Below the pieces are notes generated by a model. That model had not been told where the DNA came from, searched no databases, and worked only from the letters and a program-made list of their open reading frames with translations. Shown piece by piece: positions 20,158 through 59,429 of a DNA stretch of 64,000 nucleotides. Location: contig BPDA01000003.1 in the NCBI GenBank assembly GCA_019654055.1, positions 161-64,160 on the forward strand. Reading direction: 5' to 3'. The position numbers were made by a program, and so were the translations under genes. The DNA is from Methanobacteriota archaeon (GTDB taxonomy: Archaea > Thermoplasmatota > Poseidoniia > Poseidoniales > Thalassarchaeaceae). Each line of letters begins with the position of its first letter. Position 1 is the stretch's first letter.

Positions 20158-20233
20158 TGGCGCCGACAGCAGGACTCGAACCTGCGACCTGTGGATTAAC
20201 AGTCCACCGCTCCACCAACTAAGCTATGTCGGC
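20158..20233 (-). tRNA. tRNA-Asn (GTT), CCA encoded
   Basis: The reverse complement folds as a cloverleaf: acceptor GCCGACA/TGTCGGC, anticodon loop CTGTTAA, T-loop GGTTCGAGTCC, 3' G-CCA. Confidence 0.9.
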
Positions 20234-21721: not shown

Positions 21722-22654
21722 TCAAATGCCTGCCGTCTTAGCACTGTCCTGCTTTTGGGCATCGAGGGCGAGAAGCCTCTCTGGCCACTCCAGTCCCATG
21801 TCGATCACAGGGGGTTTCGACAGGGGGCCTGCGGCGAGAGCATCGCCCACCGGACCGACGTGGAACGGATCGTGTACGAAACCGGACCGGTCGATTAGGG
21901 CAACAGCTAGGAAGCGATCGTCGCCACGGCTCGCACCCGAGATTGCGAGGCGTCCGTAATCGCAGTCGAGAGCGGCTATCGGTCCCGTGGTCCAAGACTC
22001 GGAGGTAACCTGCCACTCAGGAGGCAGCATTGACTCCGAACCCCATTTTGAATGGTCTATCGGCAGAAGCCACCTCGATGAGGGAATCTGCAGCACCCGC
22101 TTGATTCGGCGGTAAGTCCGGAACCAAGCTAGCCAGAATAGTGCGTAGGAAGCCCAACCGAATAGCGGACTTGTTAGGACGTGTAGGGCGAAGGCTGCCG
22201 AAGCGGCAGCGAAGGTGGCCCAGTCGAACGGGAGGGATAGAATCGTCCCGCGCGACATCGGTTGGGTGGAACGGGCCATGTAGAGTGGAACTAGGACCAG
22301 AGCCCATGACAGGGAGAAGAACAGTGCTGACACGATCTGGTCGTCTGTAGGGAGGCGCTCAGGCAGAACGAGGGGTATGGCAGAGAGCAGCAGGAACAAC
22401 GGCGACCATGCAAGAGGCAGTAGGATGGATGGTGCGACGGGCTGCAGACGTTGTCTGGTCCAGCCTCGGCCGCCCTCCTGGGCATTAGTGCTGGGCCAGC
22501 TCTCGGGGGGACTGGACTCACCGCGCCTGTTGCCATGCTGAGATGAGTCTGTAGGGAGTTTCCACCATCCCGGCTCTCCTACCAGCCAGTGGTGGTCCAG
22601 TCCAGACTCCATGGTTGGCGCACGGGCGTTGGGGTCTTGTCCGCTTCGGCTCAC
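21722..22654 (-). CDS. hypothetical membrane protein
   Basis: 310 aa with a hydrophilic N-terminus, about four TM segments (ILLPLAWSPLFLLLSAIPLVL etc.) and a soluble C-terminal domain. No family recognised. Confidence 0.5.
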   Translation of the reverse strand: MSRSGQDPNARAPTMESGLDHHWLVGEPGWWKLPTDSSQHGNRRGESSPPESWPSTNAQEGGRGWTRQRLQPVAPSILLPLAWSPLFLLLSAIPLVLPERLPTDDQIVSALFFSLSWALVLVPLYMARSTQPMSRGTILSLPFDWATFAAASAAFALHVLTSPLFGWASYALFWLAWFRTYRRIKRVLQIPSSRWLLPIDHSKWGSESMLPPEWQVTSESWTTGPIAALDCDYGRLAISGASRGDDRFLAVALIDRSGFVHDPFHVGPVGDALAAGPLSKPPVIDMGLEWPERLLALDAQKQDSAKTAGI

Positions 22655-24162
22655 TCAGGGCCCGGATGTCTGAGGACTAGGTTGCGTGCCGCCCAAACCT
22701 CGTCCACTCTCCTGACATCAGTGGTGTGAGGTGCGGAGGTGACGATTTCGGGGTCCTCGCAGAGAATCTCGTGGAAGTCATCAGCGAACCTGTCCATGAC
22801 CTCCTTCGACTCGGTCTCGGTGGGCTCAATCATCAGGCACTCCGGGACTATCATGGGGAAGTACAGGGTAGGGGCCATGACTCCATAGTCAAGCAGCCTC
22901 TTGGCAACGTCCCTACCAGTCACACCCACAGCGTCCTTGAGCGCGCTCAGGGAGATGGTGAACTCGTGCTTCACCACATCGGCTGGGGCCCCATCCAGAG
23001 GCATCGCATGCATCCGCTCAGCAGTGTCGGAACCGGGGTGCAGGATGCGGTGACGAAGGTAGTTGGCGTTCAGCACGGCGTGCTCACTCATCCGCTCCAA
23101 CTCCCTGCCGTACCTCCTGTAGAAAGCCCAGGCACGGACCACGGCACCAGAGTTGCCATGCCACTGTTGGATCTTGCCGATGCTGGACTCCCCGACCTCC
23201 CTCCAGAAATACCAGTAGTCGTCGCCAACCCCTTCCGGATCGTCTGCGACCCGGTCCCTGCGGTCGGCTATCGGACTCGGGAGGAATGGAGATAGGTGCG
23301 ACTTCACCCCAATGGGTCCGCTTCCAGGCCCGCCGCCCCCATGCGGCTGGCTGAATGTCTTGTGCAGGTTATAGTGCACGGCGTCGAAACCCATCCTGCC
23401 AGGATCCGTCTTGCCCAATATGGCGTTGAAGTTAGCACCATCGTAGTACATCTGCCCGCCGGCCTCGTGGACCATCTCGGCAGCCCGGGATATCTCCGGC
23501 TCAAACAGACCGAGAGTGGATGGATTGGTAATCATCATCGCTGCGGTATCGTCGCCCACGGCTTCCTCGAGCGCAGCGAGGTCAATCCTGCCGTCGGCGG
23601 CGCTCGGTATCTCGATTATGTCGTATCCACACATCGCGGCTGAAGCCGGGTTGGTGCCGTGTGCGGAATCGGGGACGATTACCTTGTCGCGGTGACTCTG
23701 GCCGATGCTGCGATGGAATTCCTGGATGCAGCGCATGGCGGTGAACTCGCCTTGGGCTCCCGCGACCGGCTGCAGAGTCACCTCGTCCATTCCGGAGCAG
23801 ATCGAGAGCATTTCCTGCATCTCGAAGAAGATCGCCAGAAGGCCCTGTACCTGATGCTCTGGCTGTAGTGGGTGTATTCGGTCGATTCCGGGCAACTGGA
23901 CTATCCTCTCGTTGAGCCTCGGGTTGTGCTTCATTGTGCAAGAGCCGAGTGGGTAGAATCCGGTGTCGATACCGAAGTTCCTACTGGAGAGCCAGGTATA
24001 GTGGCGCACGAGCTCCGGTTCACTGGCCCTAGGCCAAACTGGAGGGGATTCTCGACGCAATGGCTCCGGTACGGTGGACCACGCCTCCTGCTCGCCCAGC
24101 GATGGTTCTGGTTGCGACCATCCTGCGCCCTCGGCACCGTTGAACTCGAACAGGTCGCTCAT
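22651..24162 (-). CDS. gcvPB: glycine dehydrogenase (decarboxylating) subunit 2
   Basis: P-protein C-terminal-half motifs (YPLGSCTMKHNP, NLHKTFSQPHGGGGPG). The likely start MSDLFEF at 24162 forms an ATGA overlap with the gcvPA stop. The ORF is open to 24273. Confidence 0.93.
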   Translation of the reverse strand: MSDLFEFNGAEGAGWSQPEPSLGEQEAWSTVPEPLRRESPPVWPRASEPELVRHYTWLSSRNFGIDTGFYPLGSCTMKHNPRLNERIVQLPGIDRIHPLQPEHQVQGLLAIFFEMQEMLSICSGMDEVTLQPVAGAQGEFTAMRCIQEFHRSIGQSHRDKVIVPDSAHGTNPASAAMCGYDIIEIPSAADGRIDLAALEEAVGDDTAAMMITNPSTLGLFEPEISRAAEMVHEAGGQMYYDGANFNAILGKTDPGRMGFDAVHYNLHKTFSQPHGGGGPGSGPIGVKSHLSPFLPSPIADRRDRVADDPEGVGDDYWYFWREVGESSIGKIQQWHGNSGAVVRAWAFYRRYGRELERMSEHAVLNANYLRHRILHPGSDTAERMHAMPLDGAPADVVKHEFTISLSALKDAVGVTGRDVAKRLLDYGVMAPTLYFPMIVPECLMIEPTETESKEVMDRFADDFHEILCEDPEIVTSAPHTTDVRRVDEVWAARNLVLRHPGPE

Positions 24163-25526
24163 CGATCGGCCTCCTTCAGCCATGAGGACAGTCCCGCCAC
24201 GAGCGCATCGATGTCCGACTCGCTCGTGCGCTCGTCGGCCCCAATCAGCAGGCATGTCGACATGAAGTCCCACCAGACTCCAAGATCGAATCCGCCCAGA
24301 ACCCCTTTGGAGTCGAGATGGGCCAAGGCGTTCGAGGCCTCGCCTGGCAGTTTAACAGCGAACTCCCTGAAGTTACTGGCCCCGGGGTCCACCAACTCGA
24401 TGCCCTCGATCGAGGTCACGGCCCTCTTCGTGGCCTCGGTCGCCGAGGTCACGCGCAGTGCCAGCCTCTCGATCCCGCGTGGCCCGAGTAACGCCATGTG
24501 CATGGCTCCCATCAGCGCAATCAGGGTCTCGTTGGAGCAAATATTCGAGGTCGCGCGATGCCTGCGGATGTGCTGCTCACGTGTGGATAGGGTCAGGGTG
24601 AAGGCTCGCTTGCCGTCAACGTCTCTCGTCAGGCCGACAATCCTCCCCGGCATCTGCCTGACGTAACTCTCGCCGCAGGCGAATAGCCCATAGATTGGCC
24701 CGCCTGCCGTCGGCCCGATGCCGAACGGCTGGCCTTCCCCGACGACGATGTCCGCCCCCCATCTGCCGGGGGGCTTGACGATACCGAGGGAGACTGCGTC
24801 GACCCCGACTATCAGCGCGGTGCCCCCGCCGATGATCTCCTTCAACCCCATCAGGCCCGGGTCTAGGATACCGAAGGAGCTGGGTTGCTCGACGTACACC
24901 GCGCAGCAGCCTGCTGCTTCGGCGGCCAAGCTCATGTCGACGTGACCGTTCTCAAGATGCTTGAGCATCTTGATATCAAGGCCGCTGCCTTGGGTGTAGT
25001 TCCTAATCACCTCGAGCCTCTGCGGAGGTACGAACTCGGAGACGTAGACCACATTGTCCTGAGACGCCTTACGTCGGTGGACGCGCACTGCGCAGGTGAT
25101 TGCCTCGGCCGCTGCTGTCGACGCGTCGTACATCGAAACGTTTGCCACAGGCAGGCCTACCAGTTCGCTCACCATCGTCTGGAACTCCCACATGGCCTGC
25201 AGCATGCCTTGGCTGACCTCGGGCTGGTAGGGCGTGTATGAGGTCAGGAACTCCCCTCGCGTGGCGAGCATCCCGACCATCGTCGGTACGAAGTTCCTAG
25301 CCAATCCTGCAGCGAGGAAACTGGGCCTGTCATCGAGGCCCACATTGGCACCCAAAAGCCGTTTGGCGTCATCCCATATCTCCTCCTCTGACTGCGGTTC
25401 TGGTAGAGGAAGGGGGGATTCCCTGCGGATGTCCTCAGGGATGTCTGAGAACAACTCGTCAATGGAGCCCATACCCATCGCAGAGAGTATCTCCTGCTCC
25501 CTCCCGAGATTTGGCAACTGGTCCAA
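24159..25526 (-). CDS. gcvPA: glycine dehydrogenase (decarboxylating) subunit 1
   Basis: 455 aa with P-protein N-terminal-half motifs (FLTSYTPYQPEVSQG, REQHIRRHRATSNICSNE). Confidence 0.93.
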   Translation of the reverse strand: MDQLPNLGREQEILSAMGMGSIDELFSDIPEDIRRESPLPLPEPQSEEEIWDDAKRLLGANVGLDDRPSFLAAGLARNFVPTMVGMLATRGEFLTSYTPYQPEVSQGMLQAMWEFQTMVSELVGLPVANVSMYDASTAAAEAITCAVRVHRRKASQDNVVYVSEFVPPQRLEVIRNYTQGSGLDIKMLKHLENGHVDMSLAAEAAGCCAVYVEQPSSFGILDPGLMGLKEIIGGGTALIVGVDAVSLGIVKPPGRWGADIVVGEGQPFGIGPTAGGPIYGLFACGESYVRQMPGRIVGLTRDVDGKRAFTLTLSTREQHIRRHRATSNICSNETLIALMGAMHMALLGPRGIERLALRVTSATEATKRAVTSIEGIELVDPGASNFREFAVKLPGEASNALAHLDSKGVLGGFDLGVWWDFMSTCLLIGADERTSESDIDALVAGLSSWLKEADR

Positions 25527-25649
25527 TGCGACTTTCTCCTGCCTCTCGGCGCACCGAGGAGAATAACGAGAGTCTTCAATGTTCGTCGGGCCGGCTCAGT
25601 CGGTCACCGACACACTCTTAATCGCCCGAACGGAGTCAGTCGCGATAGC

Positions 25650-26495
25650 ATGAGGGTAGCAATCTCGGCGTCCGACGCGTTCGTCGCTCCGTACATAGCC
25701 GAAATGCTCGGCGACTCCGCCGTGGTGGTGCCAGACGAGGCGCTTTCCGATGCCACTTCTCTCGATGCCATGCTGACTCCCTGTAGCGCCCTGATACACA
25801 TCAACTCGCGACCCGCGGACACCTCGGTCGGCCGCACCGACCGCGAGGCATACATCACTATGAGGGAGGCATCCAGACCGATTCTCGATGCGGTGGACAG
25901 GCACGGGGGCCTTCATCTGGTGATACTGGGCACCCTGCGTGTGCACCCCCAGTGGAGCGCTGGGGAAGCGTACTACGGGCTCGAGTCTACCCTAGCTCCC
26001 CGTGACACCGCGGCAGAGGGGCAGTTGTGGATGGAGGAGAATGCACTGGAGCGAGCCGAGGCAGAACGGCCGGTGAGCATAGTCAGGGCCTCCAACGTCC
26101 AAGGTATGCCTCTAGAGGGGCCTCCAGGCAACGGTCTGCTCCATAGGTGGGCCGAGGAGTGCCAGATCGGTTGGATCAACATTCCCGGAGATGGGTCCGA
26201 CATCAAGGACTTCATTCACGTCGAGGACCTCGTGAGGGTGGTGGATGCGGTCCTCTCAAGCCCGCCCCCGACCAGAGAGAGCATTGCAGTGGGGTCTGGC
26301 AAGGGGATATCGATGGAGGATCTCGCATCAATCTACCAGCAGAGGACTGGTTGCGACCTAGAGTTCGGGCAGAGTGATGAGGAGGAGGTCTTCGGAATCG
26401 TCGATGCATGGGGCCTAGAGGAGAGATTCGGGTTCAGGCCGCAGATAAGTCTCGAGGAGATGATCGGGGAGGCCTTCGAGGCCGCAGGTCACTGA
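25650..26495 (+). CDS. NAD(P)-dependent epimerase/dehydratase-fold (extended SDR-like) protein with degenerate cofactor and catalytic motifs
   Basis: 281 aa with overall SDR-like layout (IVRASNVQG, DFIHVEDLV). The N-terminal G-x-x-G-x-x-G is replaced by ISASDAFVAPY, and no clear Y-x-x-x-K is present. Confidence 0.45.
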   Translation: MRVAISASDAFVAPYIAEMLGDSAVVVPDEALSDATSLDAMLTPCSALIHINSRPADTSVGRTDREAYITMREASRPILDAVDRHGGLHLVILGTLRVHPQWSAGEAYYGLESTLAPRDTAAEGQLWMEENALERAEAERPVSIVRASNVQGMPLEGPPGNGLLHRWAEECQIGWINIPGDGSDIKDFIHVEDLVRVVDAVLSSPPPTRESIAVGSGKGISMEDLASIYQQRTGCDLEFGQSDEEEVFGIVDAWGLEERFGFRPQISLEEMIGEAFEAAGH

Positions 26496-28735
26496 GCGTT
26501 CAGTATCAGCCTCTTGCGAATCCCGTTCCACCCAGCGATGGATGCATTCAACGAGTGCTCGGAACCTCTGCGGAACGGGCCCGAGTCGGCATCATTGCGA
26601 AGACGGATATCAACCTCGCCGACTCCCGGAATCTCGGCGATGATGGTACTTCCCCCTCTGTACTCGTCGTCCACGCCGATTCCGAAAGTGCGCTCGGGAG
26701 CTGTTGTCACCTTGATTGAAATGTCGTGAGGCTGTCCTTCGACGGATTCGGCAAGCCTTCTCTGGTCCGACAGCATCCTAGCTTCGGAGAATGCGGAGGC
26801 GAGGTCGACCAGATTAAGAGTGGCGGGTGGAGCGTTAGCATCTACCTCTGGTGCGCCCTTCGGCGTGACGGGTTCTGGAGTCTCCATCTGCCTGGGAGGA
26901 GGGGAGGATCTCCTGCGGGAAGTGACTGATACCCTGTCGGGCACTGAGACTCTCGAGGACCTAGTTACGCGGTGACTGTCGTGCCATGCAGAGCCTCGCT
27001 GCTCACGAACGTCGACTTGTTCTGGGATGTCGACTTGTTCTGGGATGTCGACTTGTTCTGGGATGTCGACTTGTTCTGGGGCGTCGACATGCCGCTCCTC
27101 GTGCCAGGTGTCATGGCTGGCATATTTCAGATCCTCTGGATCAGCGGGTGCTTCCTCTTCTGCTTTCGCAGCAGTGGTGGCTTCTTCTTCGGCGTTTTCC
27201 CTCATATCAGCAGTAATTGCGCCCGCAACACCCACTGCGGCTGCTCCGGCAGCTATGGCCTCGGGGCTCGGCATCCTAGAGGCGATCTGATTCTGCATAG
27301 AGTCTGCGCGGATCCTCCAGATCCTCCTAGCGGCGGACTGTACGGAGAAGGGCAGTTTCTCAATCTCCTTCTCCACCTCCGCATCGGCAATCGACCTAGC
27401 CTGATCGAGTGACATGCCGCCGTCGATCACGGATTGCTCCAACTTGGGCAGCATCTCTGTGAAATTCCCAGTGACCGTGTCGAACTCGGACTCGCCTGCA
27501 TCGGCAGGGGGGCGGGCGGCATCGGTGACCTCGAACGCGACGTATGCAATCTCTCGACCATTATTGTCCGTGTCATGAAGTCTCAGAGTCCACTTCCCCG
27601 GTCCGGGATTGGGCAGGGAGAAGTCGCCGCTGGTCCTGCCTTCGAGATACTTGTAGCTGGTCTCGTGCTGGTCGTTGACCGCCTCATCACCATGAGGAAT
27701 CTCTGCCGGTACGATTCCTATCCAGGCGTCGTCCGGAAGTTCGGGTGAGATGAAGGAGAAATTGATGCCCTCGTCGCTCTTGTAGGAAGATCTCGATGGG
27801 GTGATTTTGATTGTCGGCGACGATGGCGGCTGCGACGCTTCCACCGTGAAGTCCACTCGGTTGTGTAAGGTGTAGCCTCCATCTGAGAATACTCGTATGC
27901 TCCATTGCCCTTCGGACTGCCCAGGCAATGATGCGTTGTTCACGTCAATTTCTCTGAGCCAGCGCCAACGGTCTTCTCCGTGCTCATTGTCCCCTGCACT
28001 AACTGGATAGATACCGACCCAAGCGTCGTTGCTACTGGGGACCTCGTTGATTCTGAAGCGTACGGGTTGGCCTGGAGTCGTATCTAGAATCTCGATGGGG
28101 GCGTTTGTCCACGCTTCGAGGCCCTCAGGCGGACTTTCCGGGCCGGAAGCAGCTGAGACCGTGATCTTGCCGACACCCACCCATCTGCGAGACCCCGTGG
28201 GAAGTGAGCCGTCGCCCCTAGGGCGCGACCAGCCGCCCCTGTACCAGTCGTTGCTGCCGTCCTGCTCCCTGTCGTCTAGGCTCCACGAGGGGGCGCCGCC
28301 GCTGTTGGCGTTGTAGTAGTAGAGGCGGTTCCCAGCTGCGCTCTTGTACCACGGCTTGCCGTTAATCGGGGTCTCCTGCATAGCGTATTCTCCGTTATAG
28401 GAGTCGTTGGGATGCCCGGATATCGAAACGCCTCCTCCGGCAGGTATCGAATCTGTGGGACCTCCTTCCAACAGCACCAGTATCTCAGTGAGATCCACCG
28501 AGCCGTCCGAGTTGATGTCAATCGCCCCGAATACCGCCCTGAGTATGGCCGCAGGTGCCTGCTGACCCGTAATCGACTCCAGCGCTGCTGCGAACTCGTT
28601 CTCCGATAGGGTCCCGTCGCCGTCCAAATCGTACTTGGCAAATAGGGCCTCTCCGGAAACTCCCTTGCTACGCAGGACCTCCTGCAGATTCTTGATGGCG
28701 ATTGCCTCTATGGTCCCACGGGCGCCGTCCATCAT
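26489..28735 (-). CDS. EF-hand pair / WW-like / 2x SKICH-like multidomain protein with hexapeptide tandem repeat
   Basis: 748 aa with no signal peptide. Canonical 12-residue EF loops DLDGDGTLSENE and DINSDGSVDLTE. WW-like PWYKSAAGNRLYYYNANSGGAPSW. Two similar modules carrying DAWVGIYP and DAWIGIVP. IPEQVD repeated 4 times. Confidence 0.7.
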   Translation of the reverse strand: MMDGARGTIEAIAIKNLQEVLRSKGVSGEALFAKYDLDGDGTLSENEFAAALESITGQQAPAAILRAVFGAIDINSDGSVDLTEILVLLEGGPTDSIPAGGGVSISGHPNDSYNGEYAMQETPINGKPWYKSAAGNRLYYYNANSGGAPSWSLDDREQDGSNDWYRGGWSRPRGDGSLPTGSRRWVGVGKITVSAASGPESPPEGLEAWTNAPIEILDTTPGQPVRFRINEVPSSNDAWVGIYPVSAGDNEHGEDRWRWLREIDVNNASLPGQSEGQWSIRVFSDGGYTLHNRVDFTVEASQPPSSPTIKITPSRSSYKSDEGINFSFISPELPDDAWIGIVPAEIPHGDEAVNDQHETSYKYLEGRTSGDFSLPNPGPGKWTLRLHDTDNNGREIAYVAFEVTDAARPPADAGESEFDTVTGNFTEMLPKLEQSVIDGGMSLDQARSIADAEVEKEIEKLPFSVQSAARRIWRIRADSMQNQIASRMPSPEAIAAGAAAVGVAGAITADMRENAEEEATTAAKAEEEAPADPEDLKYASHDTWHEERHVDAPEQVDIPEQVDIPEQVDIPEQVDVREQRGSAWHDSHRVTRSSRVSVPDRVSVTSRRRSSPPPRQMETPEPVTPKGAPEVDANAPPATLNLVDLASAFSEARMLSDQRRLAESVEGQPHDISIKVTTAPERTFGIGVDDEYRGGSTIIAEIPGVGEVDIRLRNDADSGPFRRGSEHSLNASIAGWNGIRKRLILNAQ
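27011..27088 (-). repeat. 18-bp tandem repeat (about 4.3 copies) encoding (IPEQVD)n
   Basis: gtcgacttgttctgggat is repeated head to tail on the + strand, in frame within the 748-aa CDS. Confidence 0.9.
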
Positions 28736-28798
28736 GGCCCATGAAAGGGCCGGACAGCAATGAGGATTTTCCCGGCGGAACCACGTACTGAGTACGGG

Positions 28799-29917
28799 TC
28801 AAACGAACGGAGGTCTCCTAACTCTGGCCCTGACTCTCTTGCGCGGGCTCGATTGCACCCAGACCTCCTGACCCATGCTGATTGGCTGCAGGTACGCCAT
28901 TGCGATTCCCGTACGTCCCAAACTCGGTGAGGGGCCGCCGCTGGTGACATAGCCGAGCACGCTGGCATCGTCTTCGTCAGCCGAGAAGACAGCGTGCCCG
29001 GGCCTTGGCGAGGGGCCTCTATCCAAGCACTCCAGGCCATGCCACCTGTCTCCAGACTCGAGCGAGTCCAGCACACGTTTCCTGCCGACGAAGTCGTGCT
29101 CGGCGTCAAGACCGTAGGGCACTGCCGTCTCCGCGGTGTCTCTGACGAGGAAGTCTTCTGGCAGATCTGCCTCGGGCTGCATTCCCAGACCGGGCCAGAG
29201 AAAGTCCTGGCCAGACAGCAGATACCCCTTCTCAAGGCGCAGTGTGTCTCTGGCACCCAGTCCCACTGGCACTAGCCCGTGGGGGTGCCCCGCCTCCAAC
29301 AGGGCATCCCACAGCAGGGTGGCCTGTTCGTTGTCGACGAATATCTCGTAGCCCCTTTCGCCGGTGTAACCCGTCCCCTGAATCCAACCGCGGATGCCAA
29401 GGGAATTATCCGCTATGTCCTGGCATGCGAACCTCCCGACCGCGTTGTCCCCTCCGATGACGTCAGTGAGGATGCGTTCCGACATAGGTCCCTGAAGGGC
29501 TAGGATGCTGGTCATGTCGGATAGGTCCTGAATGGCAATCGAGCCGTCGACAGGGAGCAGTGAGGACAGCCAATCCAGCATGATGGGGGCCATCGAGGCG
29601 TTTGGCACCCCCAGAACCTCGGTCTCGGACTTGACGGCGAAAATCATGTCATCGATTATGTGGCCGTCGTAATCTAGGAAGTGCGTGTACCCGCACCTAC
29701 CGCTTGCGAAGTTCATATACTCCTGAGTCGCAATGCTACTCAGCCATGAGCGCACGTCCCTCACCGGAGAACCGGAAGAAACCCATATGGGATACGTCGA
29801 ACAGGCCGGCGGCAGCTCTGGTGGACAGATGCTCCTCCTGTATCGAGGAGTACCAGATCGGCAGCTCAAAGCCATGGAAGTCCACCATCCTCGCTCCCGC
29901 ATCCAAGTGGGATTCAT
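28799..29917 (-). CDS. gcvT: aminomethyltransferase (glycine cleavage T protein), C-terminal fragment (authentic frame from ~29757 downward)
   Basis: GcvT-like body (GYTGERGYEIF, LGARDTLRLEKG). The first ~55 listed residues are out-of-frame text that overlaps the N-terminal fragment. Confidence 0.85.
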   Translation of the reverse strand: MNPTWMRERGWWTSMALSCRSGTPRYRRSICPPELPPACSTYPIWVSSGSPVRDVRSWLSSIATQEYMNFASGRCGYTHFLDYDGHIIDDMIFAVKSETEVLGVPNASMAPIMLDWLSSLLPVDGSIAIQDLSDMTSILALQGPMSERILTDVIGGDNAVGRFACQDIADNSLGIRGWIQGTGYTGERGYEIFVDNEQATLLWDALLEAGHPHGLVPVGLGARDTLRLEKGYLLSGQDFLWPGLGMQPEADLPEDFLVRDTAETAVPYGLDAEHDFVGRKRVLDSLESGDRWHGLECLDRGPSPRPGHAVFSADEDDASVLGYVTSGGPSPSLGRTGIAMAYLQPISMGQEVWVQSSPRKRVRARVRRPPFV

Positions 29918-29978
29918 ACAACGAGGTCCTCACCGGCCCGTCACCTGACACGCACCCGAGGGGGGTCAATGGGTGCAA
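29736..29978 (-). CDS. gcvT: aminomethyltransferase N-terminal fragment
   Basis: RTSLYESHLDAGARMVDFHGFELPIWYSSIQEEHLSTRAAAGLFDVSHMG is the canonical GcvT N-terminus. The frame breaks at the CCC run 29758-29760. Confidence 0.85.
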   Translation of the reverse strand: MHPLTPLGCVSGDGPVRTSLYESHLDAGARMVDFHGFELPIWYSSIQEEHLSTRAAAGLFDVSHMGFFRFSGEGRALMAE

Positions 29979-30032
29979 TAAGTTACGGGAGAGGTAAGCG
30001 TTGGAGATAGACTTGCAACTAGAGAGACGGCT

Positions 30033-31109
30033 ATGAGCAAGGAATACGAAGACTTAAATAATAAGGACCCTACTATACAACTGCGAGTTGAGAAGATGGA
30101 ACGAGACACTGCTAGACAGGCCGGCGAATCTGAGCGTGCTTCACAGAAGCGAAGCCGTTCGAAGCCTATCCGACCTGCGCGACGCCCGTCTAGGGAGCGT
30201 GGCACCGAATCTATGGCCGGTCCCTGCAAGGTGTGCGGGGCCAACTCGTGGGATACCGATGACATCAGAGGGGAGACCTCCTGCTCGGAGTGCGGCTACG
30301 TCGCGTCCGAGAACATGATTGACCCTGGGGCCGAGTGGATTAACCACTCCGACGGGGACGACAGGAGTCGTGTAGGCGCGCCCACCACCCTCACTCTGTC
30401 GGACAAGGGACTGTCGACCGAAATTCGTCGCTCCGATCTCACCGCAGGCGGCGCTAGACGGCACGGGATGTCCGGCAAGGCTCTCCGCGAGTGGAGGCGC
30501 AGGCAGCGAATCGACCAGCGCAGCAAGACCCGGGACAGCCGCAGCCGCAACCTATCGAAGGCGATGCAGTTCATCCGCGACCGCGGGGACCTACCCTCTC
30601 AGATCGAGCAGGAGGCAGCCTCGCTGTACAGGCACTCGGTGGAGCGTGGCTTGGTCACCGGACGCAGCATCCGTGGCGTCTCGGCGGCTTGCGTCTACAT
30701 CGCCGCGAGGGAGGCCAAGATACCGCGCAAGATAGAAGACGTCGCCGAGGCGTTCGACATGATCAAACCGGTGGAGGAGAAGGAGCTCAAGCGCACCATC
30801 AGGTTGGTCGCGAGGATGCTCGGCACGCATCACATCACCGGGCCGGAGGAGTACTTCGAGAAGTTCCACTCCGACCTCGGCCTGCCACCTCATGTACTCG
30901 GCGGGGTCCGTGACCTGTGGGACTCGGTCAAAGACGACCTGTCATGGCAGGGTAAGAAGCCCTCCGGAATCGCCGGAGTAATCATCTACAAGGCATCTCA
31001 GGAGAGCTCGTCGCCGAGGACTCAGAGCGAGGTCTGCAAGGTCTCGGGAATCAGCGAGGTGACCCTGAGGGGGCTCCTGAAGATACTGGCTCAACTCACT
31101 GCTGAGTAG
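30033..31109 (+). CDS. tfb: transcription initiation factor IIB (TFB)
   Basis: Zn-ribbon CKVCGANSWDTDDIRGETSCSECG followed by two cyclin-fold repeats. The 60-aa basic N-terminal extension has atypically AT-rich codons, and ATG at 30213 (MAGPCKVCG) would give the usual ~298 aa. Confidence 0.85.
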   Translation: MSKEYEDLNNKDPTIQLRVEKMERDTARQAGESERASQKRSRSKPIRPARRPSRERGTESMAGPCKVCGANSWDTDDIRGETSCSECGYVASENMIDPGAEWINHSDGDDRSRVGAPTTLTLSDKGLSTEIRRSDLTAGGARRHGMSGKALREWRRRQRIDQRSKTRDSRSRNLSKAMQFIRDRGDLPSQIEQEAASLYRHSVERGLVTGRSIRGVSAACVYIAAREAKIPRKIEDVAEAFDMIKPVEEKELKRTIRLVARMLGTHHITGPEEYFEKFHSDLGLPPHVLGGVRDLWDSVKDDLSWQGKKPSGIAGVIIYKASQESSSPRTQSEVCKVSGISEVTLRGLLKILAQLTAE

Positions 31110-31314: not shown

Positions 31315-31391
31315 TGGTGGACGCTGGGGGATTTGAACCCCCGGCCACCTGGTTGCAAACCAGGTGCTCTTCCAAGCTGAGCTAAGCGCCC
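31315..31391 (-). tRNA. tRNA-Ala (TGC), CCA encoded
   Basis: Reverse complement GGGCGCTTAGCTCAGCTTGGAAGAGCACCTGGTTTGCAACCAGG...TTCAAATCCCCCAGCGTCCACCA. The anticodon loop is TTTGCAA and the acceptor stem has the G3:U70 pair. Confidence 0.9.
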
Positions 31392-31441: not shown

Positions 31442-32152
31442 TCACTCGTCATCGGTTGTGTCCGACAGTCTAGGCAGGATGATTGCCATCCCGACGAGCG
31501 AGGCCAGCAGAATCAGCACGAGTACATCGTCGTCAGTAGACTTTTCCTCCTCGGAACCTGTGGGAGGATTAGTTGGAAGCGTGTGCTGGTCCTCTGAGAA
31601 GTTGACTGTGAAAGGTGACTCTGTCAGGGTTTGGTTGTGCTCAATCTGATGCAGCATCGAGATGTTGCCGGGCAGCAGGCCGTTAGATGGATCGAGAAGG
31701 ATCAGTTCGGTCACCTCGCAATCGGAATCTACCTTATCACCGGTCTCGTTCAGTTCGCACGAGGGAGATAGCCAGGCCGTGGCCATATCATCCACCCCCT
31801 CGAACACCCCATCCCCGTCGGCATCGATCAACACCCTGTGAGCCACTCCATCGCGACTGTCGACGTTGTAGAAGAACAGCGAGTCCGTCGAGACCAGGAT
31901 ACCTGGTGCGACCCCATCAGGAGTAACGCCGTCCTCTTTGAGGAGCATCGTGTATTCCTTGGGCTCGTGGGCGGATGCCGGCACTGCCAGAAGTAGCAGA
32001 GACAACGTTACTGTCAACAGGCAGACTTCTCGCACGCCCCGCCGTAGCGGGGCGATGGCTTCAACATGACCGGCAGGCTCGCAGCGCCCAGTGGATTCGC
32101 AACGCACCGTTCTAGCCATCGGGCTCGCTGTCTGCATGGTAGCTGCCATCAC
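31442..32152 (-). CDS. secreted, C-terminally TM-anchored cupredoxin-like protein; predicted mature N-terminus His (paralog of 35878..36414)
   Basis: Signal CLLTVTLSLLLLAVPASA followed by HEPKEY. The core DSLFFYNVDSRDGVAHRVLIDADGDGVFE is shared with the paralog. C-terminal TM VLVLILLASLVGMAIIL. The probable start is GTG at 32035 (MREVCLL). Confidence 0.55.
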   Translation of the reverse strand: MMAATMQTASPMARTVRCESTGRCEPAGHVEAIAPLRRGVREVCLLTVTLSLLLLAVPASAHEPKEYTMLLKEDGVTPDGVAPGILVSTDSLFFYNVDSRDGVAHRVLIDADGDGVFEGVDDMATAWLSPSCELNETGDKVDSDCEVTELILLDPSNGLLPGNISMLHQIEHNQTLTESPFTVNFSEDQHTLPTNPPTGSEEEKSTDDDVLVLILLASLVGMAIILPRLSDTTDDE

Positions 32153-33836
32153 CGCCGTGATGATGCTTTCAGACAGTCCTGAAGACGGTGACTCTGACTA
32201 TGGAGGGATACTTGACCCACTAATACAGGACGAGGGTCACGACCACAGAAACGCCAGCCAGCACATGATGTACACCGACAACATCCAGCCTATCTCCTTC
32301 AACGGACTGACGGCCCCGGGCAACGCGGAGATCCAAGTGGCAGACTCTCCTGACGGCAAGACCTACGCCTACATTGCCGGCTGGAGCGAGATGCACATAG
32401 TCGATGTGAGTGATCCCTCAAACACCACGGTCACTGGGGTCTACTACGACCCGAACACCCAGGTCCTCGATGTCAAGTACCTTGAGTACAACGGTAGGGA
32501 GTACGTCATCGTGCAGAACCAATTGGTCGACCCAGGCGCTGCCGACCCCAACGTTGGGGAGTGGGAGGATCCTGCCCAGGTCACAGTCACGCTGGTCGAC
32601 GTCACGGACAAGAGTGACCCGAGCTGGGTCGACTCGTGGTACGATGCTGACCATCCGAGTGGACCTCATAACCTCTACACCCATATGATCGACAACGAGT
32701 GGTACATCTTCGTCGCCAACCCCGACTACGAGGCGTGCGACGTGGGGCAGGGTGACGCATGCGGAGGCATCACCATCGCCCACCTCAACTTCGCCGGCTA
32801 CGGCGACCTGCCTCGGATAGTGAAGGTCGGAGAGGCCGAAGTCAGCTGGGAGTCAACGCTCGGAGGCTGGATCTATATCCACGACATGACGGTTCAGACC
32901 TGGCCCGGCGAGGATTCCAACGACCCTCGTTTCGAAAGGACCTACGTCTATGGGGCCTACTGGGAGGCGGGTCTACGGATTTTCGACGTCTCGGACGTCC
33001 CACACCCGAACAAGGATCTCATCGAGTATGCTTGGTATGGCTCGCTGTGCAGGCTCTCGGGAGGCACCCAAGCCGGCTGCACCTGGAGGGCGCCAGAGGT
33101 CGGCCAGTGGATGGAATTCGAGGACTTCGACGGCGACGGAGAGATTGACTGCGGCTGCACCAGCAACGAGAACGGAGGCCGCGCCTCCTACATTCACTAC
33201 GCCGAACCTGTCGACGAGATGGTCGACGCATCGCACCTAGGGTACCCTGCGGGGAAGATGCACCTGACTCTACTGGCGACGGAGGTCCTCGAGACCACTG
33301 TCGGGACGGGGATGGCCTACCTGCTCGACACCACTGCCTACGAAGAAGTGAACGGTAATGTTAGATTCATGCCAGAACTAATCCACGGCTGGGAAATCCC
33401 ATTTGCCAATGACCACCACATCCCGGGCGGCGAGGAGTGGTTGCTGTTCAGCCCGCACAACGCCGACACCCACGTCTTCCAGACTGGGCTGCCGGGGCTG
33501 CCCGACACCAGCCACGGTGGGGCGTGGGACGCTAGGATATATCTCTCCAGCTATCATGCCGGGCTGTGGGTGATGGATGTAGAGACATTGATGCTGGCAG
33601 GTCTGTCTGACGGCAACAAGACAGTTGTCCACATGGATGCCACCATCGGCTACCACCTGCCCCATGGGGTTGACGGTGAGCCGCTCGACAGTTCATACTA
33701 CGACTTCGGATGGACTCCGTTCCTGTGGGCAGCGGAGTACCACAAGGGCTACACCTACCTGTCATGCATCACCACCGGGCTGTACATTGTCCAGTTGGAC
33801 ATTGACCAGCCATACGGCGTGCCATTGGGCCAATAA
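32091..33836 (+). CDS. LVIVD-repeat beta-propeller surface protein (signal-anchored)
   Basis: N-terminal TM VLAIGLAVCMVAAITAVMML. LVIVD-type strands are repeated (MHIVDVSDPSN, VTLVDVTDKSDP, GLRIFDVSDVPHP, GLWVMDVE, GLYIVQLD). His-rich segment DEGHDHRNASQH near the N-terminus. Confidence 0.65.
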   Translation: MDSQRTVLAIGLAVCMVAAITAVMMLSDSPEDGDSDYGGILDPLIQDEGHDHRNASQHMMYTDNIQPISFNGLTAPGNAEIQVADSPDGKTYAYIAGWSEMHIVDVSDPSNTTVTGVYYDPNTQVLDVKYLEYNGREYVIVQNQLVDPGAADPNVGEWEDPAQVTVTLVDVTDKSDPSWVDSWYDADHPSGPHNLYTHMIDNEWYIFVANPDYEACDVGQGDACGGITIAHLNFAGYGDLPRIVKVGEAEVSWESTLGGWIYIHDMTVQTWPGEDSNDPRFERTYVYGAYWEAGLRIFDVSDVPHPNKDLIEYAWYGSLCRLSGGTQAGCTWRAPEVGQWMEFEDFDGDGEIDCGCTSNENGGRASYIHYAEPVDEMVDASHLGYPAGKMHLTLLATEVLETTVGTGMAYLLDTTAYEEVNGNVRFMPELIHGWEIPFANDHHIPGGEEWLLFSPHNADTHVFQTGLPGLPDTSHGGAWDARIYLSSYHAGLWVMDVETLMLAGLSDGNKTVVHMDATIGYHLPHGVDGEPLDSSYYDFGWTPFLWAAEYHKGYTYLSCITTGLYIVQLDIDQPYGVPLGQ

Positions 33837-41305: not shown

Positions 41306-41382
<77 letters not shown>

Positions 41383-46975: not shown

Positions 46976-47053
46976 TGGTGCTCCTGTCGGGATTCGAACC
47001 CGAGTCGCCGGGATGAAAACCCGGAATGATGGGCCGTGCTACACCACAGGAGC
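46976..47053 (-). tRNA. tRNA-Glu (TTC), CCA encoded
   Basis: Reverse complement GCTCCTGTGGTGTAGCACGG...CCGGGTTTTCATCCCGG...GGTTCGAATCCCGACAGGAGCACCA, with anticodon loop TTTTCAT. Confidence 0.88.
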
Positions 47054-56019: not shown

Positions 56020-56072
56020 CGGCCATGGCCGGCACTCTTGAGAGTTTCACTCGGAGAACTGAGGTTCAAGTT

Positions 56073-56148
56073 GGTGGGCCCGACCGGAATTGAACCGGTG
56101 ATCTTCGCTTTGTAAGAGCGACGTCATAACCCCTAGACCACGGGCCCC
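56073..56148 (-). tRNA. tRNA-Val (TAC), CCA encoded
   Basis: Reverse complement GGGCCCGTGGTCTAGGGGTTATGACGTCGCTCTTACAAAGCGAAGATCACCGGTTCAATTCCGGTCGGGCCCACCA, with anticodon loop CTTACAA. Confidence 0.9.
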
Positions 56149-57696: not shown

Positions 57697-58935
57697 ATGG
57701 AAGCCGTTGACGATGGCATCGGAGAGGCCGACAGGCTGGTGCTGGAAGGGCTGCGCTCGGCCGGTGATGCGTGGATTGTCGGCGGATGGGTCAGAGAGGC
57801 ACTATGGGGCCGTCACAAAACGGATATGGACATAGCCACCACGTTGCAGCCCAGTGAGGTCAAGGAGCTGTTTCCACGCTCGCTGATGGTGGGTGAGAAG
57901 TACGGTACGGTGATAGTCAGGCTCGACGAGTCAATCTCAGACAATACGTGGGAGGTCACCACGCTGCGCAGCGAAGGTAGTTATGGCGACGGTAGGAGGC
58001 CGGATCAGGTCGAATTTGGGCACAGTATAGAGGACGACTTGGCGCGACGGGACTTCACCATCAATGCGATGGCCATCGACTCGGATGGCGATTTGATAGA
58101 TCCTTTCGGCGGTATCTCTGACCTCGAAGACGGCGTACTGCGTGCAGTAGGAGTGGCTGGAGAGAGATTAGGCGAGGACGGTCTTCGGATAATGAGGGCA
58201 TACAGATTCCTAGATTCCGCTGATGGCATGCGAAGCATGGAAGGGTCGTTGAGGTCCGCTGTGAAGGATAATCTCGAGATGCTGGATGTAGTCTCACGAG
58301 AGAGAATCGGGGTCGAGATGATGAGAATCCTCGGCGGGTGGAATCCGGGAGAGGTGGTCTCGCAGATGCTCGAAGACGGCGTCATGGGGCGGGTCATGCC
58401 AGAAATCGCATGCACCGCCGTGCCGTCGTTCTGCGAGGATTCGATGGTCAATCTCGCTCTGCTCTGCAGCGATGAAACCTCCGAGGGCGACGAGATGGTG
58501 GCCAAGCTTCGAAGCGCCTTGGTCCTGGCCAAGCAGCAACTGCGACAGATGGCCTTCCTGCACGACGCCAGGGACGTTTCTCTGAGTACCGAGGTTGGAG
58601 GGCTTCGCCGCTTCCGAGCGGCCCTCCCTGCGGAATGGAGAAGTGCTTTCACTGCCTATTCGCAGGGACTGGGTAGGGACACCGAGGAGTTCTCCAATGC
58701 CCTAGAGGCACTGAGTCCCCTAATCGCAGGCAACGCACCCTTGGTGGACGGGATTGCACTGGTCGAAGCAACCGGATTGGAGCCTGGGCCGAGGATGGGG
58801 CGTCTGAAGGGGCTGCTGCACCGGATTCAGGTGGAGCGCGACCTCTCGACCTCTGGCGAGGTGCTGTCGGTACTCGACGAGCTGGACTGGAGGGACTCGG
58901 ACTACGAGGGCTGGCCAGCACTGGGTTGGCCCTAG
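57697..58935 (+). CDS. class-II tRNA nucleotidyltransferase/poly(A) polymerase family protein (CCA-adding-enzyme-like, no HD domain)
   Basis: Head-domain motifs in order: IVGGWVREALWG, DMDIAT, LRSEGSYGDGRRPDQVEF, DLARRDFTINAMA, DPFGGISDL, EDGLRIMRAYRF. Confidence 0.7.
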   Translation: MEAVDDGIGEADRLVLEGLRSAGDAWIVGGWVREALWGRHKTDMDIATTLQPSEVKELFPRSLMVGEKYGTVIVRLDESISDNTWEVTTLRSEGSYGDGRRPDQVEFGHSIEDDLARRDFTINAMAIDSDGDLIDPFGGISDLEDGVLRAVGVAGERLGEDGLRIMRAYRFLDSADGMRSMEGSLRSAVKDNLEMLDVVSRERIGVEMMRILGGWNPGEVVSQMLEDGVMGRVMPEIACTAVPSFCEDSMVNLALLCSDETSEGDEMVAKLRSALVLAKQQLRQMAFLHDARDVSLSTEVGGLRRFRAALPAEWRSAFTAYSQGLGRDTEEFSNALEALSPLIAGNAPLVDGIALVEATGLEPGPRMGRLKGLLHRIQVERDLSTSGEVLSVLDELDWRDSDYEGWPALGWP

Positions 58936-59429
58936 GGCAGCTCGTTCAGCATCTCGATGTACTCTTCCTGATCTAGGTACTGGTCCTCATCGAACTCGTG
59001 CGGCTGCACAATCACGCACCAGCCGTCTCCGTAGGCATCGTCGTTGAGCAAATCGGGGTTGTCCTCGACCTCCCCATTCAACTCCGAAATCTTGCAGGGG
59101 AACGGGGAGTTAATCAGCAGGGTCTCAATCTCTCCCTCGAAACTGGTGGTCAATGTAATCAGCAGATCCTCAGCCCCGACCTCGTCGCCGCTACCCATGA
59201 TTCTGATGGCGTCATCGTCACCGGAATCGGACTCGGCCTTGAACTCGCTGTCATCCTCGGGGCGGGTGAGCACCACTCTCACGATTTCACCGTACTCGGC
59301 ACGGACGAACTCGCTGATTCCAATCTTCACAGATTCCGCCTTGTCGTCCAAGGCCTGGAGCCACAAATGCTCGAGAGTGTACTTGCGATCATGAGCTATG
59401 CTGAACTCCGAGTAGTCGCCGTTTGCCAT
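58932..59429 (-). CDS. GcvH-like protein lacking the lipoyl-lysine, with acidic insertion
   Basis: YTLEHLWL...IGISEFVRAEYGEIVRV and SPFPCKISELNGEVEDNPDLLNDDAYGDGW align with GcvH. The E-S-V-K position reads E-G-E-I. Contains a ~35-aa D/E/S insert. Confidence 0.6.
   Translation of the reverse strand: MANGDYSEFSIAHDRKYTLEHLWLQALDDKAESVKIGISEFVRAEYGEIVRVVLTRPEDDSEFKAESDSGDDDAIRIMGSGDEVGAEDLLITLTTSFEGEIETLLINSPFPCKISELNGEVEDNPDLLNDDAYGDGWCVIVQPHEFDEDQYLDQEEYIEMLNELP

Follow-up and report, generated by a model that had tools for sequence, protein, structure and literature searches.

What kind of calcium-binding protein is encoded between the glycine cleavage genes of a marine archaeon, is it of eukaryotic type, and on which side of the membrane would it work? 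The gene that raises these questions lies in a window of 64,000 nucleotides (the whole stretch of DNA analysed here: contig BPDA01000003.1 of assembly GCA_019654055.1, positions 161 to 64,160 of the forward strand) from an archaeon of the family Thalassarchaeaceae, order Poseidoniales. It is a complete open reading frame (ORF) at positions 26489..28735 of the window, on the minus strand, and its product is an order-specific EF-hand multidomain protein of 748 amino acids (aa), without cysteine and with a pI of 4.6. Poseidoniales are among the most abundant archaea of the surface ocean; to our knowledge, none of them has been cultured.

A sequence-only reading of this stretch had described the product as a Ca2+-responsive scaffold or adaptor of a eukaryote-like type, combining two EF-hands, a WW-like motif and two SKICH-like modules. 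The features that it listed for ORF 26489-28735, i.e., two EF loops, the string PWYKS...APSW, two modules with DAW[VI]GI, (IPEQVD)4 and a C-terminal domain, were all found again in the sequence. The protein that carries them represents a new arrangement of domains around a Ca2+-binding module that is itself known, and it is restricted to an order of archaea that is abundant and uncultured. As to its role, the interpretation that we favor, with reserve, is that of a cytoplasmic, probably membrane-proximal Ca2+-responsive adaptor, which shares modules, and putatively partners, with membrane proteins of the Poseidoniales.

The EF-Hand Pair

The calmodulin-like EF-hand pair covers aa 28-90 (28466..28654, minus strand) and was recognized by Pfam, by alignment with calmodulin and by the conservation of its loops. 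Ca loop 1, DLDGDGTLSENE (aa 36-47, 28595-28630, minus strand), and Ca loop 2, DINSDGSVDLTE (aa 73-84, 28484-28519, minus strand), are both canonical, with Asp at position 1, Asp, Asn or Ser at positions 3 and 5, Gly at 6, a hydrophobic residue at 8 and Glu at 12. The Pfam families EF-hand_1, _5, _6 and _7 all exceeded their gathering cut-offs in the target (39.4 bits against 25.4 for EF-hand_1, 34.6 against 30 for EF-hand_7, PF13499), and the top PDB sequence matches of the pair were calmodulins, aligned over 61 residues, that is the whole N-lobe. Both loops were canonical in 136 of the 152 distinct N-termini of the family, with Asp 1, Gly 6 and Glu 12 near-invariant. Judged from its sequence, the EF-hand pair is genuine and under selection, as the sequence-only reading had it, and it presumably binds Ca2+.

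The pair resembles calmodulin in having two canonical 12-residue loops 37 residues apart, within paired helix-loop-helix motifs. Unlike calmodulin, the target has a single lobe, to which ~650 aa are joined in domains that are not known to accompany calmodulin. A suspicion that the loops might belong to a dockerin- or TSP-like repeat was not borne out: Dockerin_1 (PF00404) reached 12.9 bits (E 0.13), below its cut-off of 22.9. Among named prokaryotic families only the XopAW effector comes near, with 37 bits for the target against a cut-off of 120, and the NCBIfam search of the target gave nothing beyond this sub-threshold EF-hand resemblance.

Distribution and Architecture of the Family

Homologues are counted in hundreds (of the scored candidates, 573 clusters reach E<=1e-3). 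Those that carry a name belong to Candidatus Poseidoniales, Thalassarchaeum or Marine Group II, and their existing annotation is only "EF-hand domain-containing protein" or "hypothetical." We then scanned 185,579 species, with one genome each, using a profile of domain A, the segment that follows the EF-hands. It retrieved 84 loci, all from Poseidoniales-type metagenome-assembled genomes (MAGs) except one 6.9-kb contig labeled Gammaproteobacteria, probably mis-binned; the best match was 91% identical to a Ca. Thalassarchaeum MAG. As far as these genomes tell, the target gene is single-copy, kept order-wide and restricted to Poseidoniales. Outside the target, a profile search of the window detected no paralogue bearing an A, B, or C module. 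Our literature searches found no study of this family; a survey mentions Poseidoniales-specific families having calcium-binding domains (PMC9258230).

The segments of the protein, delimited by comparing the retrieved proteins locally and by searching them iteratively with profiles, are the EF-hand pair (EF), an all-beta domain (A), beta-sandwich modules (B), a helical segment (H) and a C-terminal domain (C). Architectures were counted over 80 loci from the species-genome scan and 6 metagenome contigs of homologues, about 66 being complete and the others truncated. The most frequent was EF-A-H-C (37 loci), followed by EF-A-B-H-C (13 loci), EF-A-CTLD-B-H-C, where CTLD is a C-type lectin domain (8 loci), and EF-A-B-B-H-C, the type of the target (8 loci). 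On these counts the core of the family is EF-A-H-C, and the variable insert consists of zero, one or two B modules, or of a CTLD and one B module. Since only 8 of the ~66 complete loci have two B modules and 37 have none, the B modules are a lineage-specific, optional insert.

Two variations on this scheme were also observed. In many Thalassarchaeaceae orthologues (P0009-P0019, P0024; e.g., locus L001, 6001-8268) the CTLD stands in the place of the first B module. In a sub-clade (P0101, P0106, P0124) an N-terminal extension of ~95 aa precedes the EF-hand pair, with two adjoining hydrophobic stretches split by PGQS; it may represent a membrane anchor of the helical-hairpin type, acquired by a protein that is soluble otherwise.

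Domain A and the WW-Like String

Domain A (aa 97-200, 28136..28447, minus strand) is an all-beta domain with the core SWSLDDRxQDGSNDWYRGGW. Nowhere is the protein better conserved, 12 columns being invariant across 24 sequences. For A, H and C the structure modeled was that of the orthologue P0088 (~53% identical to the target in A and 36-41% in H-C), not that of the target itself. In the AlphaFold2 model of P0088 (residues 93-444) domain A spans ~100 aa and eight strands, with a predicted local distance difference test (pLDDT) of ~90. No sequence relative was found for it in Pfam or PDB, 24 diverse A domains having been compared with Pfam, and no Foldseek analogue of it appeared among the top matches of the A-H-C model in PDB and BFVD. 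Domain A is an orphan domain, found in Poseidoniales only.

The WW-like string PWYKS...APSW (PWYKSAAGNRLYYYNANSGGAPSW, aa 128-151, 28283..28354, minus strand) forms strands 3-5 of this domain. It had been said to follow the pattern W..G+.YY.N......W; the string is there, but the expression has no literal match, the Gly standing at +6 and the Trp residues 22 apart, so that only the loose spacing holds. The Pfam WW family (PF00397) gave no match at E<=10 in the target or in the 24 diverse A domains, and a PROSITE PS01159-type signature is absent from the string. The first Trp is a Trp in 58 of 94 relatives and otherwise Ser, Phe, Leu, His or Tyr; the second is followed by SLDD, with no Pro after it, and the spacing of 22 fits the WW range (20-23). 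We rejected a WW domain on the profile, the signature, the poor conservation of the first Trp, the missing Pro and the structural context, as the string lies inside an eight-stranded domain of ~100 aa and is not an autonomous three-stranded module of 35-40 aa.

These results bear directly on the scaffold of bona fide WW and SKICH domains that the sequence-only reading had in mind, homologous to eukaryotic adaptors or transferred from them. Every test of its WW part failed and that part is refuted, which leaves the SKICH part to be weighed.

The B Modules and the SKICH Question

The target has two B modules. B1 (aa 205-302, 27830..28123, minus strand) is a short-type Ig-like beta-sandwich repeat (DAWVGIYP ... 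WSIRVF ... DFTV; profile domain E 2e-14), and B2 (aa 303-412, 27500..27829, minus strand) is a canonical one, with the loop PHGDEAVNDQHE (profile domain E 5e-35). Both match a single profile and contain DAW[VI]GI, so the two modules are related, as had been noticed. The family to which they belong is very large: most of the 1680 representative proteins found with the whole query were found via their B match, and many of these proteins have from 3 to more than 9 tandem copies and a length of up to 3900 aa. A profile search with the B alignment in a set of 5.8 billion proteins gave 18 short proteins.

The AlphaFold2 model of B2 (pLDDT 93) is an eight-stranded sandwich with one short helix. Its best Foldseek match in PDB was an uncharacterized Leptospira protein (6oe6, E 1.6e-4), and other top matches were the N-terminal domain of GH66 dextranase, GbpA, the MG2 domain of alpha-2-macroglobulin, fn3-like domains of GH3 enzymes, and PmoD. 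With such Ig-like, MG2 and fn3-like repeats (6oe6, GH66 N-domain, MG2) B2 shares the best structural scores (E 1.6e-4 to 1e-3, template modeling (TM) score 0.53-0.63). The identity is only 13-16%, though, and the conserved W-I-G and R positions are peculiar to the B family. The SKICH domain of NDP52 came at rank 18 (5z7a_A, E 3.2e-3, TM score 0.56/0.59) and rank 46 (7eaa_A, TM score 0.61/0.64), and the B2 sandwich superposes on it with TM scores of 0.56-0.64.

Sequence comparisons agree in making SKICH a distant neighbor at best. Scanned individually against Pfam, B1 and B2 reached no family, and PDB yielded nothing significant when searched with sequence profiles of A, B, H and C. SKICH (PF17751, cut-off 23.4 bits) appeared below threshold in 3 of 32 and 4 of 27 relative modules (best E 0.0013), the latter being short-type modules, of which it was the commonest sub-threshold Pfam match; it was accompanied by Arrestin_C, MG2, GOLD, fn3_PAP, and A2M_BRD among the B relatives. 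Compared by hhalign with an alignment of NDP52 and TAX1BP1, whose SKICH sequences were verified against PDB, the B modules gave probabilities of 14% (all B) and 36% (short-type B), versus <=5% for reversed or shuffled controls, with [D/A]W[IV]GI aligned to DWIGIF. The modules and the SKICH domains of NDP52 and TAX1BP1 have in common a ~100-aa Ig-like beta sandwich, the strand motif [D/A]W[IV]GI[FYV] and a C-terminal pattern Y.F...D...F.F, in the same order. They differ in that B modules are repeated in tandem, up to nine times or more, in prokaryotic proteins that are often secreted, and in that B2 has a loop H-G-[SD]-E..N-D.H-D that SKICH lacks.

Two distant relatives of the B modules, P0155 (44 bits summed; its source is a Saprospiraceae bacterium) and P0287 (with a signal peptide, 33 bits), pass the gathering score of the Pfam SKICH model, and this model is therefore not confined to eukaryotic sequences. 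A third one, P0282 (locus L087), has an N-terminal anchor and is encoded in a 2.16-Mb contig of bacterial type with OmpR-type two-component genes. The B modules belong to a prokaryote-wide Ig-like repeat family without a Pfam model, of which SKICH may be a remote branch. SKICH membership of B1 and B2 was not established, no Pfam threshold being reached, the hhalign values staying at 14-36% and SKICH not being the best structural match. What remains of the SKICH-like modules is the repeat itself and, at best, a remote resemblance of fold, and the placing of the DAWIGI modules in a beta-sandwich family of prokaryotes is part of the outcome that the sequence-only reading had itself named as speaking against it.

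The whole eukaryote-like framing fails because the B family is prokaryote-wide, occurs in secreted bacterial proteins and is optional in the target family. The alignment of DAW[VI]GI with the DWIGIF of NDP52, the TM scores and the frequency of SKICH among the sub-threshold matches speak for a scaffold of true WW and SKICH domains. The failed WW tests, the position of the query modules below all Pfam thresholds, the better structural matches, which are bacterial or generic Ig-like, and the dispensability of the modules in the target family make such a scaffold very unlikely.

The loop H-G-[SD]-E-x-x-N-D-x-H-D connects two sandwich strands in B2 and recurs in 250 of 490 related modules. From its composition in His, Asp, Asn and Glu it may be a metal site; metal-binding sandwiches (PmoD, lytic polysaccharide monooxygenases, X325, superoxide reductase) are among the Foldseek neighbors of B2.

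The C-Terminal Half

The part behind the B modules had been described as a coiled, acidic region, the repeat (IPEQVD)4 and a distinct C-terminal domain. The repeat and the domain are there; the coiled, acidic region splits into a segment of three helices, a hydrophobic segment rich in Ala and Gly, and an acidic linker that is probably disordered. Segment H (aa 413-492, 27260..27499, minus strand) has three long helices in the P0088 model and an invariant LP...AR..W. The Ala/Gly-rich segment AIAAGAAAVGVAGAITADM (aa 493-511, 27203..27259, minus strand) keeps its position in all orthologues, and the acidic linker (aa 512-629, 26849..27202, minus strand) bears WHEERHV and P[DE][QR]V[DE] motifs. 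The disorder of the linker is judged from the shorter one of P0088, modeled with pLDDT 33-53.

Within the linker, (IPEQVD)4 is encoded by a tandem repeat of 18 bp in 4.3 copies with 96% matches (27011-27088). P0001, a relative 94% identical to the target, has two PEQVD units where the target has four, and a motif WH[DE]E.HV..P[DE][QR]V recurs in many orthologues. The repeat is a young, copy-number-polymorphic expansion of this older linker motif.

Domain C (aa 630-748, 26492..26848, minus strand) is conserved (ERTFGIG...YRGG.T...WN.IRKRL) and is modeled as an OB-like barrel of five strands, preceded by two helices. In the P0088 model it has a pLDDT of ~95 and a short helix between strands 3 and 4. 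All its Foldseek matches were OB folds (S1/eIF2alpha, YgiW-like 3f1z, RPA, IF1, ligase OB), and all were weak (E >= 8e-3 in PDB, ~1e-3 at best in BFVD). The modeled domain shares with OB-fold domains such as S1/eIF2alpha, YgiW/BOF (3f1z) and RPA the five strands and the helix between strands 3 and 4, whereas it has no sequence similarity to them and two extra N-terminal helices. No sequence relative of H or C was found in Pfam or PDB. A single SepF-like match of domain C (E 0.027, 1 of 22 members) was treated as noise.

Membrane Paralogues and Sidedness

On which side of the membrane these modules lie can be approached through their paralogues (P0057-P0120), which are polytopic membrane proteins of Poseidoniales with A, B and sometimes C modules in company with Fascin/FRG1-type beta-trefoil, Vps62 and Lectin_C domains. 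In proteins such as P0057, P0060 and P0074 the modules are 59-72% identical to those of the target and are found in the same organisms, while the paralogues differ from it by 2-8 strongly hydrophobic transmembrane helices, by a four-cysteine loop and by the lack of the EF-hand pair.

The absence of a signal peptide, already noticed from the sequence, was found again in the target and in ~150 relatives. The ATG of the 748-aa ORF is the earliest possible start downstream of the preceding stop codon (28735), the N-terminus MMDGARGTIEAIAIKNLQEVLRSKGVSGEA is hydrophilic and has no hydrophobic h-region, and more than 90 orthologues share the same start position. It is quite unlike the product of ORF 31442-32152 in the same window, which shows a clear signal peptide. 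Proteins of the family have at most one cysteine each, the target none. Several paralogues place globular domains of 490-590 aa ahead of their first transmembrane helix, again without a signal. The A and B modules that flank the transmembrane block are separated by an even number of helices (0 to 4, or 0 to 2), and a loop of ~150 aa with exactly four cysteines is always across the membrane from the modules, which are nearly cysteine-free (0.12-0.24 per 100 aa). Because P0074, P0136, and P0176 have no transmembrane helix between B and C, the A, B, and C modules are on the same side. On the most parsimonious view, all three face the cytoplasm and aa 493-511 do not span the membrane.

The Ala/Gly-rich segment is the place where a different topology could be sought. 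The protein might be bitopic, with EF-A-B-H in the cytoplasm, aa 493-511 as a glycine-zipper transmembrane helix and the OB-like domain outside on an acidic spacer, in a TonB-like layout. The position of the segment, kept in every orthologue, its basic flank on the N-side (RRIWRIR...SR) and acidic flank on the C-side, which fit the positive-inside rule, and the long extended spacer before a compact C-terminal domain would suit this topology. Against it, the hydropathy of the segment is low (Kyte-Doolittle value 1.58 for the best 19-mer of the target and 1.4-1.9 in the family, versus 2.0-3.2 for the transmembrane helices of paralogues), and the summed free energy on the Hessa scale is +5.3 kcal/mol in the target and +1.8 to +6.2 in the family, versus -0.6 to -3.5 for the true transmembrane helices of the same organisms. 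Also, the P0088 model gives the segment a pLDDT of 33-53 and no continuous helix, and the paralogues keep C on the side of B. The segment is probably not a classical transmembrane helix, and we consider the bitopic topology improbable.

The main rival to the cytoplasmic reading is a cell-surface, Ca2+-stabilized binding protein of the adhesin or lectin type. Here the EF-hand pair would be structural and permanently Ca2+-loaded in sea water, and A, B and the CTLD of orthologues would bind external glycans or particles; an unrecognized export route would also be needed, with the Ala/Gly segment or domain C as an anchor. The CTLD is of a type common in extracellular binders: it scores 37-39 bits with Pfam Lectin_C, matches the carbohydrate recognition domain of the macrophage mannose receptor at 3e-13 and keeps the EPN and WND Ca/sugar-binding motifs. 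In bacteria, B modules follow signal peptides or belong to giant proteins of PKD- or A2M-like kind, the linkers have an acidic composition rich in Pro and Glu, and the beta-trefoils of the paralogues are lectin-like. On the other side, the same CTLD has none of the canonical disulfide cysteines, zero cysteines in fact, and sits in a protein without an export signal; the target and its ~150 relatives have no signal peptide, the long globular domains before the first transmembrane helix of several paralogues have none either, and the four-cysteine loop is on the opposite side of the membrane from the modules. Taken together, a surface location seems unlikely, if less so than the bitopic topology.

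The cytoplasmic, Ca2+-responsive adaptor is the reading that we tentatively retain. In such a protein, Ca2+ binding to the EF-hand pair would change the engagement of a partner by the adjacent A domain, and by the B modules where these are present. The C-terminal OB-like domain, on its long, acidic, flexible tether, would engage a second partner, the Ala/Gly-rich segment would give a weak contact with the membrane or between protomers, and the partners would probably be common to the membrane paralogues bearing the same modules. Of the Ca2+-responsive scaffold proposed from the sequence, a multidomain adaptor with a genuine EF-hand pair and no export signal is plausible, and its WW/SKICH framing is given up.

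Several points weigh against placing the protein in the cytoplasm. Its sidedness is deduced only from missing signals and the parity of transmembrane helices, and the crude hydropathy count is unreliable for N-terminal bundles of such helices. Bacterial relatives of the B modules have signal peptides or anchors, and the Ca/sugar site of the orthologue CTLD is typical of extracellular lectins. Acidic, Pro/Glu-rich linkers are typical of cell-surface stalks too. A and C are without characterized relatives, and their structures, like that of H, are those of P0088.

A broader proposal is that the target belongs to a recognition network inside the cells of Poseidoniales, located at the membrane cortex, regulated by Ca2+ and made of the calmodulin-like EF-hand pair, the SKICH-related sandwiches, the cysteine-free EPN CTLD, the fascin/FRG1-like beta-trefoils and the Vps62-like domains. 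In this network the target would serve as a soluble sensor of Ca2+ or as an adaptor, and domain A would represent a new kind of binding module, specific to the order. The modules of this network are otherwise known from the eukaryotic cytoplasm or from extracellular lectins, and Poseidoniales are not Asgard archaea. We regard a network of this extent as speculative and rather unlikely.

Genomic Context

The target gene lies 63 nt downstream of gcvT (28799-29917, minus strand), and its 3' end overlaps by 7 nt with a convergent NAD-epimerase gene (25650-26495, plus strand); its other neighbors are gcvPA, gcvPB, and a divergent TFB gene. The order TFB (divergent), gcvT, target, epimerase (opposite strand), gcvPA, gcvPB, an unknown gene, purE, guaA (window 22651-31109) is kept across Poseidoniales (loci L001-L086): 54 of 62 loci have gcvT directly upstream of the target and in the same orientation, and 58 of 58 have gcvPA downstream.

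In many operons, gcvH fills the slot between gcvT and gcvP, the usual place of gcvH that the target gene occupies here. An ORF of 165 aa at 58932-59429 (minus strand) is similar to the H protein of glycine cleavage (tblastn E 1e-6 against Escherichia coli GcvH) and lies at a distance of ~30 kb from the gcvT/gcvP cluster. The conserved neighborhood, the short gap to gcvT and this distant gcvH-like ORF would be consistent with a link to the glycine cleavage system, in which the protein might, e.g., regulate or organize the T and P proteins in a Ca2+-dependent manner. On the opposite side, a Pfam scan detected no lipoyl or GCV_H-like domain in the target, and none of its domains is tied to folate or glycine chemistry. 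Moreover, because the whole TFB-to-guaA block (~15 kb) is syntenic, the slot of the target between gcvT and gcvP may be merely inherited and not functional. We hold a role in glycine cleavage to be highly improbable.

Elsewhere in the window, the 236-aa product of ORF 31442-32152 (minus strand) has, behind its typical signal peptide, a C-terminal hydrophobic anchor and belongs to no Pfam family. ORF 32091-33836 (plus strand) encodes a 581-aa LVIVD-repeat protein, and in orthologous loci, too, LVIVD proteins border the syntenic block. Genes for five tRNAs (Asn, Ala, Thr, Glu, and Val) are dispersed at 20158-20233, 31315-31391, 41306-41382, 46976-47053 and 56072-56147.

Significance

For annotation, this protein is a caution that short strings of the WW-like or DWIGIF-like kind are insufficient to identify eukaryotic modules. 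The gene defines three uncharacterized domains (A, H, and C), together with a large family of beta-sandwich repeats without a Pfam model. It also raises a testable question, namely whether modules of the lectin and Ig types, including a disulfide-free EPN CTLD, are used inside an archaeal cell. A single-copy gene that is kept throughout the order, with a strictly conserved Ca2+ site of the calmodulin type, points to Ca2+-dependent regulation in Poseidoniales.

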